A stretch of DNA of 64,000 nt, from NCBI RefSeq assembly GCF_055900595.2, contig NZ_CM148325.1; one strand, written 5' to 3'. Under the pieces are notes generated by a model. That model made no database searches. It was not told the DNA's origin and saw nothing but the letters and a program-made list of their open reading frames with translations. The position numbers and the translations under genes were made by a program. Shown piece after piece: positions 11,303 to 51,396 of this stretch (its first letter is position 1; each line of letters starts with the position of its first letter).

Positions 11303-11390
11303 GCCGGATGCGGTGCGAGCGCCTTATCCGGCCTGGGGAATGAGCGATTTGTAGGCATGATAAGACGCGTTAGCGTCGCATCAGGCAATG
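11303..11390. repeat. REP (palindromic unit) pair between alkA and yegE
   Basis: gccggatgcgg... and gcatgataagacgcg...cgtcgcatcaggc REP consensus-like palindromes. Confidence 0.7.
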
Positions 11391-18249: not shown

Positions 18250-18286
18250 GTAGGCCTGATAAGACGCGTAAGCGTCGCATCAGGCA
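18250..18286. repeat. REP element downstream of asmA
   Basis: gcctgataagacgcgtaagcgtcgcatcaggc palindrome. Confidence 0.75.
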
Positions 18287-18644: not shown

Positions 18645-18682
18645 GCCTGATGCGACGCTTACGCGTCTTATCAGGCCTACAT
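18645..18682. repeat. REP element downstream of yegH (inverted relative to 18250..18286)
   Basis: gcctgatgcgacgcttacgcgtcttatcaggc palindrome. Confidence 0.75.
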
Positions 18683-20710: not shown

Positions 20711-20750
20711 TCAGTGTATTGGTAGCTAAAAAGCCAGGGGCGGTAGCGTG
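20711..20750 (+). promoter_or_regulatory. JUMPStart element with ops site (GGCGGTAGCGTG at 20739..20750) in the wza leader
   Basis: Exact ops motif; cagtg...ggtagc...ggcggtagcgtg arrangement typical of RfaH-dependent polysaccharide operons. Confidence 0.8.
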
Positions 20751-24692: not shown

Positions 24693-24815
<123 letters not shown>

Positions 24816-35174: not shown

Positions 35175-35177
35175 ACG

Positions 35178-35285
<108 letters not shown>

Positions 35286-38187: not shown

Positions 38188-39666
38188 ATGAGCTTACGTG
38201 AAAAAACCATCAGCGGCGCGAAGTGGTCGGCGATTGCCACGGTGATCATCATCGGCCTCGGGCTGGTGCAGATGACCGTGCTGGCGCGGATTATCGACAA
38301 CCACCAGTTCGGCTTGCTGACTGTGTCGCTGGTAATCATCGCGCTGGCAGATACGCTTTCTGACTTCGGTATCGCTAACTCCATTATTCAGCGAAAAGAA
38401 ATCAGTCACCTGGAACTTACCACGTTGTACTGGCTGAACGTCGGGCTGGGGCTTGTGGTGTGCGTGGCGGTGTTTTTGTTGAGTGATGCCATTGGTGACG
38501 TGCTGAATAACCCGGACCTAGCACCGTTGATTAAAACATTGTCGCTGGCGTTTGTGGTGATCCCCCACGGGCAGCAGTTCCGCGCGTTGATGCAGAAGGA
38601 GCTGGAGTTCAACAAAATCGGCATGATCGAAACCAGCGCGGTGCTGGCGGGCTTCACTTTTACGGTGGTTAGCGCCCATTTCTGGCCGCTGGCGATGACC
38701 GCGATCCTCGGTTATCTGGTCAATAGTGCGGTGAGAACGCTGCTGTTTGGCTACTTTGGTCGAAAAATTTATCGCCCCGGTCTACATTTCTCGCTGGCGT
38801 CGGTGGCACCGAACTTACGCTTTGGTGCCTGGCTGACGGCGGACAGCATCATCAACTATCTCAACACCAACCTTTCAACGCTGGTGCTGGCGCGTATTCT
38901 CGGCGCGGGCGTGGCAGGGGGCTACAACCTGGCTTACAACGTGGCCGTTGTGCCGCCGATGAAGCTGAACCCCATCATCACCCGCGTGTTATTTCCGGCA
39001 TTCGCCAAAATTCAGGACGACACCGAAAAGCTGCGCGTGAACTTCTACAAGCTGCTGTCGGTGGTGGGGATTATCAACTTTCCGGCGCTGCTCGGGCTGA
39101 TGGTGGTGTCGAATAACTTTGTACCGCTGGTCTTTGGTGAGAAGTGGAACAGCATTATTCCGGTGCTGCAATTGCTGTGTGTGGTGGGTCTGCTGCGTTC
39201 CGTAGGTAACCCGATTGGTTCGCTGCTGATGGCGAAAGCGCGGGTCGATATCAGCTTTAAATTCAACGTATTCAAAACCTTTCTGTTTGTTCCGGCGATT
39301 GTTATTGGTGGGCAGATGGCGGGCGCAATCGGCGTCACGCTCGGTTTCCTGTTGGTGCAGATTATCAACACCATTCTGAGTTACTTCGTGATGATTAAAC
39401 CGGTTCTTGGTTCCAGTTATCGCCAGTACATCCTGAGTTTGTGGCTGCCGTTTTATCTCTCGCTGCCGACGCTGGTGGTCAGTTATGTGCTGGGCATTGT
39501 GCTGAAAGGGCAACTGGCGCTGGGGATGCTGCTGGCGGTGCAAATAGCCGCGGGCGTGCTGGCGTTTGTGGTGATGATTGTGCCGTCGCGCCATCCGCTG
39601 GTGGTGGAAGTGAAGCGTCAGTTTTGTCGCAGCGAAAAAATGAAAATGCTTTTACGGGCGGGGTGA
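38188..39666 (+). CDS. wzxC: Colanic acid repeat-unit flippase WzxC (492 aa)
   Basis: Polytopic membrane protein; synteny. Confidence 0.92.
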   Translation: MSLREKTISGAKWSAIATVIIIGLGLVQMTVLARIIDNHQFGLLTVSLVIIALADTLSDFGIANSIIQRKEISHLELTTLYWLNVGLGLVVCVAVFLLSDAIGDVLNNPDLAPLIKTLSLAFVVIPHGQQFRALMQKELEFNKIGMIETSAVLAGFTFTVVSAHFWPLAMTAILGYLVNSAVRTLLFGYFGRKIYRPGLHFSLASVAPNLRFGAWLTADSIINYLNTNLSTLVLARILGAGVAGGYNLAYNVAVVPPMKLNPIITRVLFPAFAKIQDDTEKLRVNFYKLLSVVGIINFPALLGLMVVSNNFVPLVFGEKWNSIIPVLQLLCVVGLLRSVGNPIGSLLMAKARVDISFKFNVFKTFLFVPAIVIGGQMAGAIGVTLGFLLVQIINTILSYFVMIKPVLGSSYRQYILSLWLPFYLSLPTLVVSYVLGIVLKGQLALGMLLAVQIAAGVLAFVVMIVPSRHPLVVEVKRQFCRSEKMKMLLRAG

Positions 39667-39694
39667 GTTGTTGTTTTCGGTTCCGACAACGGTT

Positions 39695-40172
39695 GCCGGG
39701 TGCAGCGTAAAACGCCTTATCCATCCTACGGTTCTGTGCTCGGGACCTGTAGGCCTGATAAGACGCGTCAGCGTCGCATCAGGCACTGAATGCCGGATGC
39801 GGTGTGAACGCCTTATCCGGCCTACGGTTCAGGGCTTGGATCTTGTAGGCCCGATAAGACGCGCCAGCGTCGCATCAGGCACTGAATGCCGGATGCGGCG
39901 TAAAACGCCTTATCCGGCCTACGGTTCTGTGCTCGGGTCTTGTAGGCCTGATAAGACGCGCCAGCGTCGCATCAGGCACTGAATGCCGGATGCGGCGTGA
40001 ACGCCTTATCCATCCTACGGTTCTGTGCTCGGGACCTGTAGGCCTGATAAGACGCGTCAGCGTCGCATCAGGCACTGAATGCCGGATGCGGCGTGAACGC
40101 CTTATCCGGCCTACGGTTCTGTGCTTGGATCTTGTAGGCCTGATAAGAGGCGTCAGCGTCGCATCAGGCAAA
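39695..40172. repeat. Large BIME array: about five tandem units (period about 94-101 bp) of alternating REP palindromes
   Basis: Repeated gcctgataagacgcg...cgtcgcatcaggc and gccggatgcggcg...gccttatccggcctacgg units between wzxC and wcaK. Confidence 0.85.
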
Positions 40173-40230
40173 AAGCGGCAACGAACAAAACAAACGCAGC
40201 CTCACCTGGCATCAAATTTATGAGGAAAAA

Positions 40231-41511
40231 ATGAAATTACTTATTCTGGGCAACCACACTTGCGGCAATCGTGGCGACAGCGCCATCCTGCGCGGCTTAC
40301 TTGATGCCATCAACATCCTCAATCCACAAGCCGAAGTGGACGTGATGAGCCGCTATCCGGTCAGTTCTTCCTGGCTGCTCAACCGCCCGGTAATGGGTGA
40401 TCCGCTGTTCCTTCAAATGAAACAACACAACAGCGCGGCGGGCGTTGTCGGGCGCGTTAAAAAAGTCCTCCGTCGCCGCTATCAGCACCAGGTACTGCTC
40501 TCGCGCGTCACCGACACTGGCAAGCTGCGTAATATCGCCATCGCCCAGGGATTCACCGACTTCGTGCGCCTGCTGTCAGGTTACGACGCCATTATCCAGG
40601 TCGGCGGATCGTTTTTTGTCGATCTCTATGGCGTGCCGCAGTTTGAACATGCACTTTGCACGTTTATGGCGAAAAAGCCGCTGTTTATGATTGGTCACAG
40701 TGTTGGCCCGTTCCAGGATGAGCAATTTAACCAACTGGCGAACTATGTTTTTGGTCACTGTGACGCGCTGATCCTGCGCGAATCGGTCAGCCTTGATTTG
40801 ATGAAACGCAGCAATATCACCACTGCAAAAGTGGAACATGGCGTCGATACTGCGTGGCTGGTCGATCACCACACCGAAGATTTCACCGCCAGCTATGCCG
40901 TCCAACACTGGCTGGACGTTGCCGCACAACAGAAAACGGTGGCAATTACCCTGCGCGAACTGGCACCGTTCGACAAACGTCTCGGCACCACTCAACAAGC
41001 GTATGAAAAAGCCTTTGCCGGGGTGGTCAATCGCATTCTCGACGAAGGCTATCAGGTTATTGCGCTCTCCACCTGTACGGGTATCGACAGCTATAACAAA
41101 GACGACCGCATGGTGGCGCTCAACCTGCGCCAGCACATCAGCGATCCTGCCCGTTACCACGTAGTGATGGATGAACTCAACGATCTGGAAATGGGCAAAA
41201 TTCTCGGAGCCTGTGAACTCACCGTCGGTACGCGCCTGCACTCCGCCATTATCTCAATGAACTTTGCTACTCCGGCGATTGCCATCAATTATGAACATAA
41301 ATCCGCCGGGATTATGCAGCAGCTGGGACTACCGGAGATGGCAATTGATATCCGTCATTTATTAGACGGCAGCCTGCAAGCGATGGTTGCGGATACCTTA
41401 GGCCAGCTTCCGGCGCTGAACGCACGACTTAGCGAAGCCGTCAGTCGTGAGCGTCAGACGGGAATGCAGATGGTGCAGTCCGTACTGGAACGCATCGGGG
41501 AGGTGAAATGA
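40231..41511 (+). CDS. wcaK: Colanic acid pyruvyltransferase WcaK (426 aa)
   Basis: ATG at 40231; synteny and length. Confidence 0.9.
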   Translation: MKLLILGNHTCGNRGDSAILRGLLDAINILNPQAEVDVMSRYPVSSSWLLNRPVMGDPLFLQMKQHNSAAGVVGRVKKVLRRRYQHQVLLSRVTDTGKLRNIAIAQGFTDFVRLLSGYDAIIQVGGSFFVDLYGVPQFEHALCTFMAKKPLFMIGHSVGPFQDEQFNQLANYVFGHCDALILRESVSLDLMKRSNITTAKVEHGVDTAWLVDHHTEDFTASYAVQHWLDVAAQQKTVAITLRELAPFDKRLGTTQQAYEKAFAGVVNRILDEGYQVIALSTCTGIDSYNKDDRMVALNLRQHISDPARYHVVMDELNDLEMGKILGACELTVGTRLHSAIISMNFATPAIAINYEHKSAGIMQQLGLPEMAIDIRHLLDGSLQAMVADTLGQLPALNARLSEAVSRERQTGMQMVQSVLERIGEVK

Positions 41512-42728
41512 AGGTCGGCTTCTTCTTATTGAAATTTCCGCTGTCGTCAGAAACCTTCGTTCTTAACCAAATCACTGCGTTTATTGATATGGGCTTTGAA
41601 GTGGAGATTGTCGCGCTGCAAAAAGGCGACACACAAAACACCCACGCGGCATGGACGAAATACAACCTTGCCGCCAGAACCCGCTGGTTACAGGACGAAC
41701 CTACGGGCAAAGTGGCGAAACTGCGCCACCGAGCCAGTCAGACCTTGCGCGGCATTCATCGTAAAAATACCTGGCAGGCGCTCAACCTCAAACGCTATGG
41801 TGCCGAGTCGCGGAACCTGATTTTGTCTGCCATTTGCGGTCAGGTCGCAACACCGTTTCGCGCCGATGTGTTCATCGCTCATTTTGGCCCGGCGGGGGTA
41901 ACCGCAGCAAAACTACGCGAACTGGGTGTCATTCGCGGCAAAATTGCCACTATTTTCCACGGCATTGATATTTCCAGTCGGGAAGTGCTCAACCATTACA
42001 CTCCCGAATATCAACAACTGTTTCGACGTGGCGACCTGATGTTACCGATAAGCGATCTGTGGGCCGGAAGGCTGCAAAAAATGGGCTGCCCGAGGGAAAA
42101 AATCGCCGTATCGCGCATGGGCGTAGATATGACGCGCTTTAGCCCGCGTCCGGTGAAAGCGCCCGCAACACCGCTGGAGATTATTTCCGTCGCACGCTTA
42201 ACCGAGAAAAAAGGCCTGCATGTGGCGATTGAAGCCTGCCGTCAGTTGAAAGAGCAGGGCGTGGCATTTCGCTATCGCATCCTCGGCATTGGCCCGTGGG
42301 AACGACGCCTGCGTACCCTCATCGAACAATATCAACTGGAAGATGTGGTAGAGATGCCTGGCTTTAAACCGAGCCATGAAGTGAAAGCGATGCTCGACGA
42401 CGCGGATGTCTTCCTGTTGCCATCGGTAACGGGCGCGGATGGTGATATGGAAGGCATTCCGGTAGCGCTCATGGAAGCGATGGCGGTCGGCATTCCAGTA
42501 GTTTCCACTCTGCATAGCGGAATACCGGAACTGGTGGAGGCCGATAAATCCGGCTGGCTGGTGCCTGAGAACGATGCTCGCGCACTGGCACAACGTCTGG
42601 CGGCATTTAGCCAACTGGACACTGACGAACTGGCTCCGGTTGTCAAAAGTGCGCGCGAAAAAGTCGAACACGATTTTAACCAGCAGGTGATCAATCGAGA
42701 ACTCGCCAGCTTGCTGCAGGCTTTATAG
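41508..42728 (+). CDS. wcaL: Colanic acid glycosyltransferase WcaL (GT1, 406 aa)
   Basis: ATG at 41508 overlapping the wcaK stop. Confidence 0.9.
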
Positions 42729-42738
42729 AGGAGAACGC

Positions 42739-44133
42739 ATGCCATTTAAAACACTCTCCCGACGCACCTTCCTGACGGCAAGCTCGGCGCTTGCCTTCCT
42801 CCATACCCCTTTCGCTCGCGCACTTCCCGCCCGACAAAGCGTTAACATTAACGACTACAACCCTCACGACTGGATCGCCTCATTTAAACAAGCCTTCAGC
42901 GAAGGGCAAACGGTCGTCGTGCCTGCTGGATTCGTTTGTGACAATATCAACACCGGCATCTTCATCCCTCCCGGCAAAACGTTACACATCCTTGGAAGCC
43001 TGCGCGGCAACGGCAGAGGGCGATTTGTCTTACAGGACGGCAGCCAGGTGACAGGGGAGGAGGGCGGCAGTATGCATAACATCACCCTGGATGTGCGTGG
43101 TTCTGACTGCACCATCAAAGGGCTGGCGATGAGCGGCTTTGGCCCGGTAACGCAGATTTATATCGGCGGCAAAAACAAACGGGTCATGCGCAACCTGACC
43201 ATCGATAACCTCACTGTCAGCCACGCTAATTACGCCATCTTACGCCAGGGATTTCATAACCAGATAATCGGTGCCAACATCACCAACTGTAAATTTAGTG
43301 ATTTACAGGGCGACGCCATTGAATGGAACGTGGCGATTAACGACCGTGATATTTTGATATCTGACCATGTCATCGAGCGCATCAACTGTACTAATGGCAA
43401 AATCAACTGGGGCATTGGCATAGGCCTTGCTGGAAGCACTTATGATAATAATTACCCGGAAGACCAGACAGTGAAAAACTTTGTCGTGGCGAATATCACG
43501 GGATCGGATTGTCGGCAGTTGATCCATGTTGAAAATGGCAAACATTTTGTTATCCGTAATATCAAAGCCCGCAATATCACGCCGGATTTCAGTAAGAAAG
43601 CAGGTATTGATAACGCGACGGTCGCTATTTACGGTTGTGACAATTTTGTGATTGATAATATTGAAATGATTAATAGCGCCGGAATGTTAATCGGCTATGG
43701 GGTAATTAAAGGCAAATATCTCTCGATACCGCAAAATTTCAGAGTGAATAATATTCAACTGGATAATACCCACCTTGCTTACAAATTGCGCGGCATCCAA
43801 ATCTCTGCCGGGAATGCCGTCTCCTTTGTGGCACTGACTAACATTGAGATGAAGCGTGCGTCGCTGGAGTTACACAACAAACCGCAACATCTTTTTATGC
43901 GTAATATCAAGGTGATGCAGGAATCCTCAATTGGACCCGCATTGAGCATGAACTTCGACATGCGCAAAGACGTTCGCGGCGTCTTTATGGCGAAAAAAGA
44001 AACACTGCTGTCACTTGCAAATGTTCATGCGGTGAATGAAAGAGGGCAAAGCTCCGTCGATATCGACAGGATTAATCACCATATTGTTAATGTGGAAAAG
44101 ATTAACTTTAGATTGCCGGAACGGAGAGAGTAG
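42739..44133 (+). CDS. wcaM: Colanic acid biosynthesis protein WcaM (464 aa) with Tat-like signal
   Basis: N-terminus [21 protein letters not shown] (twin-arginine-like); beta-helix-like repeats. Confidence 0.9.
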
Positions 44134-45458: not shown

Positions 45459-45497
45459 CAGTGCACTGGTAGCTGTAAAGCCTGGGGCGGTAGCGTG
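45459..45497 (+). promoter_or_regulatory. JUMPStart element with ops site (GGCGGTAGCGTG at 45486..45497) for the O-antigen operon
   Basis: Near-identical to the wza-leader JUMPStart at 20711..20750. Confidence 0.8.
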
Positions 45498-45505
45498 TCT
45501 AGGGG

Positions 45506-46796
45506 CAGGGAAAGATTATCAGAAGTACACTTTTTGTACTAAATAATTCGCATTTTATGTTCAAAAATTGAGATATCCCTCATTACCTAAAACTGTTTTT
45601 CACAGCTTATATATGATCAAATACTCCTTGCTTAAATAAGGAGAACAAAATGGAACTTAAAAAATTGATGGAACATATTTCTGTTATTCCCGATTACAGA
45701 CAAGCCTGGAAAGTGGAATATAATTTGTCGGATATTCTACTGTTGACTATTTGTGCCGTCATTTCTGGTGCAGAAGGCTGGGAAGATATAGAGGATTTTG
45801 GGGAAACACATCTCGATTTTTTGAAGCAATATGGTGATTTTGAAAATGGTATTCCTGTTCACGATACCATTGCCAGAGTTGTATCCTGTATCAGTCCTGC
45901 AAAATTTCACGAGTGCTTTATTAACTGGATGCGTGACTGCCATTCTTCAGATGATAAAGACGTCATTGCAATTGATGGAAAAACGCTCCGGCACTCTTAT
46001 GACAAGAGTCGCCGCAGGGGAGCGATTCATGTCATTAGTGCGTTCTCAACAATGCACAGTCTGGTCATCGGACAGATCAGGACGGATGAGAAATCCAATG
46101 AGATTACAGCTATCCCTGAACTTATTAACATGCTGGATATTAAAGGAAAAATCATCACAACTGATGCGATGGGTTGCCAGAAAGATATTGCAGAGAAGAT
46201 ACAAAAACAGGGAGGTGATTATTTATTCGCTGTAAAAGGAAACCAGGGGCGGCTAAATAAAGCCTTTGAGGAAAAATTTCCGCTGAAAGAATTAAATAAT
46301 CCAGAGCATGACAGTTACGCAATGAGTGAAAAGAGTCACGGCAGAGAAGAAATCCGTCTTCATATTGTTTGCGATGTCCCTGATGAACTTATTGATTTCA
46401 CGTTTGAATGGAAAGGACTGAAAAAATTATGTGTGGCAGCCTCCTTTCGGTCAATAATAGCAGAACAAAAGAAAGAGCCAGAAATGACGGTCAGATATTA
46501 TATCAGTTCTGCTGATTTAACCGCAGAGAAGTTCGCCACAGCAATCCGAAACCACTGGCACGTGGAGAATAAGCTGCACTGGCGTCTGGACGTGGTAATG
46601 AATGAAGACGACTGCAAAATAAGAAGAGGAAATGCAGCAGAATTATTTTCAGGGATACGGCACATCGCTATTAATATTTTGACGAATGATAAGGTATTCA
46701 AGGCAGGGTTAAGACGTAAGATGCGAAAAGCAGCCATGGACAGAAACTATCTGGCGTCAGTCCTTGCGGGGAGCGGGCTTTCGTAATCTTGCCCTG
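45506..46796 (+). mobile_element. ISAs1-family insertion sequence (H-repeat-like), about 1.29 kb
   Basis: Imperfect terminal inverted repeats: cagggaaagatta at 45506..45518, and cagggcaagatta as the reverse complement of 46784..46796. Encloses a single intact transposase ORF. Boundaries approximate. Confidence 0.75.
45650..46786 (+). CDS. ISAs1-family transposase (H-repeat-associated protein, 378 aa)
   Basis: ATG at 45650 with RBS aaggag. The sequence [50 protein letters not shown]... is characteristic of H-repeat/YhhI-family DDE transposases. Confidence 0.85.
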
Positions 46797-50361: not shown

Positions 50362-51396
50362 ATGTTTTCATCTAAAACACTGTTAATTACTGGTGGTACT
50401 GGCTCTTTCGGGAATGCTGTATTAAATAGATTTCTTGATACAGATATTGCAGAAATCCGTATATTTAGTCGTGATGAAAAAAAACAAGATGATATGCGGA
50501 AAAAATACAATAATCAAAAATTAAAGTTCTATATTGGTGATGTCAGAGATTACCGTAGTATTTTGAATGCGACTCGCGGTGTTGATTTTATATATCATGC
50601 AGCGGCACTTAAGCAAGTTCCATCATGTGAATTTCATCCTATGGAAGCCGTTAAAACTAATATCCTTGGTACGGAAAATGTTCTTGAAGCAGCTATAGCG
50701 AATGAAGTGAAGAGGGTTGTATGCCTAAGTACTGATAAAGCTGTATACCCGATTAACGCAATGGGTATTTCAAAAGCTATGATGGAAAAGGTCATGGTCG
50801 CGAAATCCCGTAATGTTGATCGCAATAAAACAGTAATATGTGGTACCCGTTATGGGAATGTTATGGCATCTCGCGGTTCAGTTATTCCATTATTTGTTGA
50901 TCTTATTAGAGCGGGCAAGCCACTCACAATAACTGATCCTAATATGACCCGCTTTATGATGACTCTTGAGGATGCGGTAGATTTAGTTCTTTATGCGTTT
51001 GAACATGGTAATAATGGTGATATCTTTGTGCAAAAAGCACCTGCAGCAACTATTGACACATTAGCTATTGCTTTAAAGGAATTACTAAATGTTCCAGACC
51101 ATCCGGTAAATGTCATTGGAACGCGTCATGGCGAGAAATTATATGAAGCTCTACTTAGTCGTGAGGAAATGATCGCTGCTATAGATATGGGTGATTATTA
51201 CCGTGTCCCGCCAGATCTTCGTGACCTTAATTATGGCAAATATGTTGAGCAAGGTGATAGCCGAATATCTGAAATAGAAGATTATAACTCTCATAATACT
51301 CAACGGTTAGATGTTGAAGGCATGAAAGAGCTCTTGCTAAAATTAGCCTTTATTCGAGCAATTCGTGCTGGTGAAAAATATAATCTGGATTCATGA
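50362..51396 (+). CDS. fnlA: UDP-GlcNAc 4,6-dehydratase/5-epimerase FnlA (344 aa)
   Basis: N-terminus MFSSKTLLITGGTGSFG; CapE/WbjB-type SDR. Confidence 0.88.
   Translation: MFSSKTLLITGGTGSFGNAVLNRFLDTDIAEIRIFSRDEKKQDDMRKKYNNQKLKFYIGDVRDYRSILNATRGVDFIYHAAALKQVPSCEFHPMEAVKTNILGTENVLEAAIANEVKRVVCLSTDKAVYPINAMGISKAMMEKVMVAKSRNVDRNKTVICGTRYGNVMASRGSVIPLFVDLIRAGKPLTITDPNMTRFMMTLEDAVDLVLYAFEHGNNGDIFVQKAPAATIDTLAIALKELLNVPDHPVNVIGTRHGEKLYEALLSREEMIAAIDMGDYYRVPPDLRDLNYGKYVEQGDSRISEIEDYNSHNTQRLDVEGMKELLLKLAFIRAIRAGEKYNLDS

Follow-up and report, generated by a model that had tools for sequence, protein, structure and literature searches.

The window analyzed here, a stretch of 64,000 nt from contig NZ_CM148325.1 (NCBI RefSeq assembly GCF_055900595.2), carries a colanic acid operon in which wzxC, with wcaJ on its 5' side, is separated from wcaK by an untranslated gap of 564 bp (39667-40230) that houses a tandem repeat array. 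According to the NCBIfam models wcaK, wcaL and wcaM follow the array, with a GalF gene after wcaM, so that the operon is split before its last three genes, as the original prediction for this sequence had stated. Tandem Repeats Finder (TRF) reported one array at 39694-40170 (period 96, 4.9 copies, 90% matches, no indels, score 775), with unit lengths of 97, 96, 97, 96, and 91 nt. The predicted array of about five units and ~480 bp (39695-40172) is real, although its limits are those given by TRF, and the alternating REP palindromes are arranged in tandem as claimed but with a period of 96-97 nt instead of 94-101 bp.

The REPs were parsed with blastn-short using the Y, Z2, and Z1 consensus sequences, which served solely as probes. 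Ten REPs were resolved, Y on the forward strand alternating with Z2 on the reverse strand, five of each. This assignment is backed by REP325, which the same probes type as alternating Y/Z2, matching its description as Y + Z2 by Qian et al. (2015). The foot tetranucleotides CTAC and GTAG occur five times each at the expected positions, and the REPs are joined by a head-to-head linker of 5 nt (CTGAA, joining a Z2 head to a Y head) and a G/U-rich tail-to-tail linker of 19 nt. The features of the locus are listed below; all REPs were placed by probe match, and their hairpin energies were obtained by folding of the sense RNA.

20739..20750, + strand: ops element GGCGGTAGCGTG in JUMPStart, ~180 nt 5' of wza, presumed RfaH loading site (exact sequence match)
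38188..39666, + strand: wzxC, colanic acid flippase, upstream gene (NCBIfam NF007773, 832 bits, equivalog)
39661..39693, + strand: left arm of the flanking stem, with the wzxC TGA (39664-39666) and the left copy of the bracketing repeat, CCGACAACG (folding)
39694..40170, no strand assigned: BIME-2 array of five Y/Z2 units (TRF, REP parsing, unit comparison)
39694..39728, + strand: Y REP 1, degenerate, CCATCC on the foot side, hairpin of -8.6 kcal/mol
39749..39785, - strand: Z2 REP 1, -21.9 kcal/mol
39791..39825, + strand: Y REP 2, -19.4 kcal/mol
39845..39881, - strand: Z2 REP 2, -17.2 kcal/mol
39887..39922, + strand: Y REP 3, -22.1 kcal/mol
39942..39978, - strand: Z2 REP 3, identical to the consensus probe, -21.9 kcal/mol
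39984..40018, + strand: Y REP 4, weakened, CCATCC, -12.9 kcal/mol
40038..40074, - strand: Z2 REP 4, -21.9 kcal/mol
40080..40114, + strand: Y REP 5, identical to the consensus probe, -21.3 kcal/mol
40134..40170, - strand: Z2 REP 5, -18.7 kcal/mol
40171..40207, + strand: right arm of the flanking stem (…CGAACAAAACAAAC…CCTCACC) and right copy of the bracketing repeat, GCGGCAACG (folding)
40222-40225, + strand: wcaK Shine-Dalgarno GAGG (sequence)
40231..41511, + strand: wcaK, pyruvyl transferase, downstream gene (NCBIfam TIGR04006, 937 bits, equivalog)
41508..44133, + strand: wcaL and wcaM, the final operon genes, 3' of the array (NCBIfam TIGR04005, NF007517)

Three open reading frames span the array (104 aa at 39668-39982 and 77 aa at 39990-40223 on the + strand, 98 aa at 39875-40171 on the - strand); they gave no Pfam matches and were treated as repeat artefacts, not as genes. 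Repeat-derived ORFs are sometimes annotated as proteins, e.g., yahH under a REP-like match. Other REPs were seen in the window: two more clusters within the colanic acid operon, at 24698-24797 (wzc/wcaA gap) and 35176-35277 (cpsB/cpsG gap), and, outside of it, a Y/Z2 pair at 11303-11387 beside a dgcE-like gene as well as two Z2 (18250-18286 and 18645-18680) between asmA and a yegH-like gene.

Judged by its sequence, the feature is a BIME-2 element of the REP/REPIN family of non-autonomous repeats. Ton-Hoang (2012), summarising the Gilson/Bachellier classes, describes BIME-2 as z2 and y REPs in tandem with a short S linker and a strain-variable unit number; the array shows alternating inverted Y/Z2 with GTAG/CTAC feet and imperfect stems, a tandem arrangement with a short head-to-head linker, and 0-6 units among strains. 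It is also extragenic like the rest of the family, from which nothing essential sets it apart, the allele in the window having five units of which two carry weakened Y REPs (39694 and 39984). With BIME-1 (RIB/RIP) it shares the Y REP and the position at a gene end, whereas the Z1 partner, the conserved L linker with an IHF site, and the occurrence as single copies are all missing. Binding of IHF was, in the same 2012 account, a property of BIME-1, with its Z1 + Y REPs and L linker; the Z1 probe had zero matches in the array, and the IHF core WATCAANNNNTTR had none at 0 or 1 mismatch across 39667-40230, where 0.78 would be expected at one mismatch. An IHF-binding BIME-1 identity was therefore rejected, and of the expectation that such arrays bind IHF and gyrase only the second half is retained, as plausible for the BIME-2 class: in a subset of these elements there is an enrichment of gyrase cleavage sites, for the most part at Y REPs and irrespective of transcription (Sutormin 2019). 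In the part of the supplement text of that study that was accessible wzxC and wcaK are not named; by analogy with the class, the array is a probable candidate gyrase site at the DNA level. The array also falls outside the rule cited from Liang et al. (2015) for REPs that down-regulate translation, by which the REP lies no more than 15 nt from the stop codon of the gene before it: the first REP here begins 27 nt past the wzxC TGA.

An inverted-repeat search with a maximum distance of 60 returned no matches over the array because REP stems are short and imperfect, and ViennaRNA folding was used in its place. The sense RNA folds at -296.3 kcal/mol compared with -214 ± 7.7 kcal/mol for shuffled sequences (z = -10.7), which excludes a structure arising by chance; the antisense RNA is less stable by ~35 kcal/mol. 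Of the ten local hairpins, eight lie between -17 and -22 kcal/mol, the exceptions being the two weakened Y REPs (-8.6 and -12.9 kcal/mol), and internal mismatches make the predicted REP stems imperfect. A hairpin followed by a U-tract, i.e., an intrinsic terminator, was absent from 39000-40230, the sole match being inside wcaK; neither an internal sigma-70 promoter consensus for wcaK nor a promoter consensus for transcription antisense to the operon at the array was found. A non-REP hairpin starting within the wzxC stop codon holds the array itself in its loop. This flanking hairpin has an energy of -31.5 kcal/mol in the empty allele (L005, 655-741), and in occupied alleles pairing between the flanks is retained (cofold at -28.8 kcal/mol vs. 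-22.9 ± 3.2 kcal/mol for shuffles). A direct repeat of 8-9 bp, CGGCAACG, brackets the array and could be either an insertion footprint or the microhomology through which a deletion produced the 'empty' allele.

In order to compare unit numbers among strains, the window sequence was used as a query against 5,426 complete E. coli genomes, flank-to-flank spans were recorded, and representatives were parsed for REPs. The spans step by ~96 bp, and the parsed alleles have 0-6 units, the number being strain-variable as predicted:

ESDR8: gap of 71 bp, 0 REPs, 0 units
O157:H7: gap of 179 bp, 2 REPs, 1 unit
K-12 MG1655: gap of 275 bp, 4 REPs, 2 units
CE-O153H30: gap of 371 bp, 6 REPs, 3 units
Ecol_542: gap of 468 bp, 8 REPs, 4 units
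window allele: gap of 564 bp, 10 REPs, 5 units
AGR4587: gap of 563 bp, 10 REPs, 5 units
LF82: gap of 660 bp, 12 REPs, 6 units
ET490: gap of 661 bp, 12 REPs, 6 units

A second, systematic sample of 60 genomes was drawn by querying with the empty allele, which kept array length from driving the ranking. Here, no units were found in 8 genomes, one in 13, two in 14, three in 4, four in 7, five in 7, six in 3, and more than six in none; three genomes had the B-type allele described below, and one further row matched wzxC in part only. With the two samples combined, two units are the commonest state and the 5-unit allele is present in about 12% of E. coli genomes; ~13% are without any insert at wzxC-wcaK. 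Unit number was uniform within clones (one in all sampled O157:H7, two in K-12 derivatives, four in the single ST131 genome), and it represents slow variation at the level of lineages, not phase variation. Within the window allele, the closest pairs of units are 1 and 4 (5 differences) and 2 and 5 (6 differences), an offset of three units at which identity is 0.90 (offset 289), and the K-12 allele, which like that of O157:H7 shares the locus, flanks, and unit type, is shorter than that of the window by exactly 289 bp, i.e., three units. Both observations suggest that blocks of three units were exchanged unequally, and we infer unequal recombination or slippage among the units as the likeliest cause of the change in array length. 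REPs at this position are said to have been noted already in Stevenson's original account of the K-12 cluster from 1996. Insertions and deletions of REPs in the wcaK-wzxC gap among O157 strains were reported by Iguchi et al. 2011 (PMC3158064); BIME-2 arrays, their copy-number variation between strains, and REP indels at this very junction are already published.

The junction was also surveyed across Enterobacteriaceae by scanning species-representative genomes with WcaK as the query, which gave 80 loci (L012-L091) in which it was scored just 5' of position 1501. The wzxC-wcaK gap mostly measures 14-40 bp (e.g., TTTTAAGAGGTCATT), and the ancestral gap was likely ~15 nt. A structured insert of at least 60 bp was present at wzxC/wcaK in 26 of 77 species, compared with none at the neighbouring junctions wcaK/wcaL (4-nt overlap, 0/80) and wcaL/wcaM (median 11 nt, 0/77). 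REP-type inserts were found in Escherichia and some Citrobacter, BoxC-like palindromes in Pluralibacter, Pseudenterobacter, Lelliottia, Phytobacter, and others, as well as in E. coli B/BL21, and a single ERIC-like element in strain RIT691. The names BoxC and ERIC reflect our own recognition of these inserts, and no Rfam family matched either the BoxC-like or the ERIC-like ones. In E. coli BL21(DE3) the REP array is replaced by an unrelated gap of 161 bp with a BoxC-like palindrome (L006, 668-828); this insert belongs to a repeat dispersed through E. coli genomes, at a median of 15 places in each, in agreement with published BoxC counts, and the B-type allele, in which the context of the wcaK ribosome site resembles that of other genera (TTTTGAGGTCATA), occurs in ~5% of E. 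coli genomes. Two loci of the comparison have particularities of their own. The apparent 99-bp gap of Trabulsiella odontotermitis strain 01 (L036) consists of wzxC C-terminal coding sequence past a premature stop or frameshift, the true gap being ~26 bp as in L048, and in E. coli IH5 (L010, NZ_CP168949.1, 5085085-5087990) a wcaK fragment lies amid truncated intS, peptidase, and pilV pseudogenes and looks chimeric or misassembled, not like a real allele.

RfaH is expected to exclude NusG and to suppress Rho. The ops element upstream of wza would place the polymerase transcribing the array under its influence, and the use of JUMPStart-RfaH antitermination by the colanic acid operon has been published (PMC9976346). 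Published expression-array values for MG1655, which carries the 2-unit allele, under colicin M are log2 7.12 for wza, 4.82 for wcaJ, 4.45 for both wzxC and wcaK, 3.63 for wcaL, and 2.71 for wcaM; induction, in these fold-changes, falls gradually along the operon with no step from wzxC to wcaK. In the same data there is a step from wzc to wcaA (6.72 to 5.7 log2), which exceeds the nil step at wzxC/wcaK. Our literature search found no papers tying wzxC or wcaK to Rho-dependent termination or RNA-seq. The window has a second JUMPStart/ops (45486-45497), directly 3' of which lies an ISAs1-family transposase ORF (45650-46786), at the head of an O-antigen cluster that contains fnlA (50362-51396).

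We know of no ops site for the operon of REP325, the nearest relative of the array to have been studied. REP325, or the naRNA1-6 array, lies between yjdM and yjdN (Qian 2015; Harris 2026), and has in common with the wzxC-wcaK array a tandem Y/Z2 structure inside an operon, a similar size (12 vs. 10 hairpins), and a match to the naRNA4 model. The window thus holds the REP325-type arrangement of a long Y/Z2 array between same-strand tandem genes of one operon, while the matching polarity and C-rich linkers in the transcript are missing: read in the sense of the transcript, REP325 is Y-, Z2+ and the wzxC-wcaK array is Y+, Z2-, i.e., inverted. The two further differ in period (100 bp in REP325, 96 in the array), in linkers (11 + 17 nt, the latter C-rich, vs. 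5 + 19 nt, the latter G/U-rich), and in the sense C/G ratio (1.27 vs. 0.91, making the array G-rich). In a preprint from the laboratory of Qian 2015, REP325 stabilised the upstream yjdM mRNA and lowered yjdN 8-10 fold, with a partial Rho dependence seen only with the full 12 hairpins, 2-4 being insufficient (Harris 2026). The same preprint reports that, genome-wide, tandem gene pairs with a REP are biased toward the upstream gene; REP orientation is outside its scope. Smaller REP stabilisers, with one to three REPs and measured effects, are known from malE-malF and hisJ-hisQ (Newbury 1987 and Stern 1988, both as cited in later work). The array resembles them in placing intercistronic REP hairpins within an operon, 5' of less-needed genes, and differs in having ten REPs.

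We favour, with moderate confidence, a composite role over that of a strong terminator: the array would act as a hairpin barrier and a spacer, with weak attenuation, and would likely be a gyrase site. Once transcribed, the sense RNA would carry the ten hairpins indicated by folding, which, by analogy with the known stabilisers and with REP325, may block 3'-to-5' exonucleases and so protect the wza...wzxC mRNA upstream, and as an untranslated spacer the array may uncouple wcaK physically from the translation of wzxC. Read-through into wcaKLM is predicted to be only weakly attenuated because the array is inverted with respect to REP325, its sense RNA is G-rich and not C-rich, and RfaH should be on the polymerase; specifically, Rho would act weakly since C-rich unstructured segments are missing from the transcript and polymerase modified by RfaH withstands Rho, the RfaH dependence of the operon being taken from the literature. 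Any effect on the downstream genes would probably be small. As DNA, the array would probably be a gyrase site like other BIME-2 elements. Overall, it would be a repeat that a permissive junction tolerates and whose quantitative effects are small, and not a dedicated switch. Counting against weak attenuation, ten hairpins may attenuate more, given the Rho dependence of the 12-hairpin REP325, and NusG relaxes the C>G rule for Rho; moreover, ten hairpins could act unlike the four of the K-12 allele, to which the expression data apply.

The original prediction held that such arrays can act as mRNA stabilisers or partial terminators and could set the ratio of wcaKLM to upstream expression. REP325 provides a precedent for it, and a REP325-like partial terminator, working partly through Rho and with unit number setting that ratio, would agree with the 8-10 fold lowering of the gene downstream of another intra-operon Y/Z2 array that is Rho-dependent only when long, with the 564 nt of untranslated RNA bearing ten hairpins, and with the genome-wide upstream bias in REP-containing tandem pairs. 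We nevertheless regard it as unlikely here, because the array is inverted, its linkers are G/U-rich instead of C-rich and its C/G ratio is below that of REP325, an intrinsic terminator is missing, ops/RfaH should exclude NusG and suppress Rho, and wzxC and wcaK are induced equally in MG1655 with its two units. At the other extreme, a purely neutral or selfish repeat, with no measurable effect on expression or topology and a drifting copy number, would account for the range of 0-6 units, for the E. coli genomes with none, for the short gap in most Enterobacteriaceae, and for the lack of an expression step in K-12, and the position of the wcaK Shine-Dalgarno sequence within the gap makes the junction structurally permissive. 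The lack of inserts in ~13% of E. coli and in most other genera fits neutrality as well as a small effect. That the repeat does nothing at all is still rather unlikely in our estimation, as ten hairpins of about -20 kcal/mol should hardly be invisible to exonucleases (REP-stabiliser literature; Harris 2026), and three repeat families recur at wzxC/wcaK compared with 0 of 77-80 species at the neighbouring junctions.

The array might also be a recombination junction or hot spot aiding the exchange of the adjacent O-antigen region, as Iguchi et al. saw, along with the REP indels, a shift in similarity at wcaK-wzxC, and the two sides of the array differ in how far they diverge from the window in AGR4587 (11 vs. 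29 differences per 600 nt) and O157 (10 vs. 20). This asymmetry lends their idea weak backing; divergence was symmetric in seven of the nine alleles compared and nothing shows that REPs cause breakpoints instead of merely marking them, so we consider such a role quite improbable and dropped the notion of a strong recombination junction, the asymmetry appearing in two of nine comparisons only. Finally, the Rfam family RF02564 (naRNA4, derived from REP325) had four full-length matches on the - strand with 71.6-79.7 bits, over the gathering score of 59.5, which would suit nucleoid-associated RNAs that condense the chromosome with HU. These strong matches are antisense to the operon, where an antisense promoter consensus is lacking, and the operon-sense + strand reaches only 42.2-55.4 bits, a strand bias that follows from the polarity opposite to REP325. 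The matches reflect sequence kinship and not an naRNA gene, as the model simply recognises any Y/Z2 pair; moreover, nucleoid compaction by REP325/naRNA4 was not reproduced (Harris 2026). The reading as an naRNA4 gene was dropped, and a function of this kind appears exceedingly improbable.

The recurrence of inserts at wzxC/wcaK could reflect selection for a break at this junction or, equally, its permissiveness, with the wcaK ribosome-binding site in the gap. A bolder proposal, which we put forward as rather improbable, is that the junction is a selected 'decoupling point' colonised independently by at least three unrelated palindromic families, where the 0-6 units of E. coli would be a slow evolutionary dial on wcaKLM dosage or upstream mRNA stability, and the inverted, G-rich polarity would make the array an RfaH-compatible stabiliser instead of a terminator and a natural orientation control for REP325.

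As a discovery the array is of little weight, being a known kind of element at a locus with reported polymorphism. Its value lies in the natural alleles that E. coli offers at a single position inside an RfaH-controlled operon, with 0-6 units and a polarity opposite to that of REP325; this series could help to settle how orientation, length, and antitermination shape the effects of REPs on mRNA. In addition, that different repeat families have repeatedly settled at this junction is relevant to the question of whether elements of this kind insert at sites that tolerate them or at sites where they bring a benefit.
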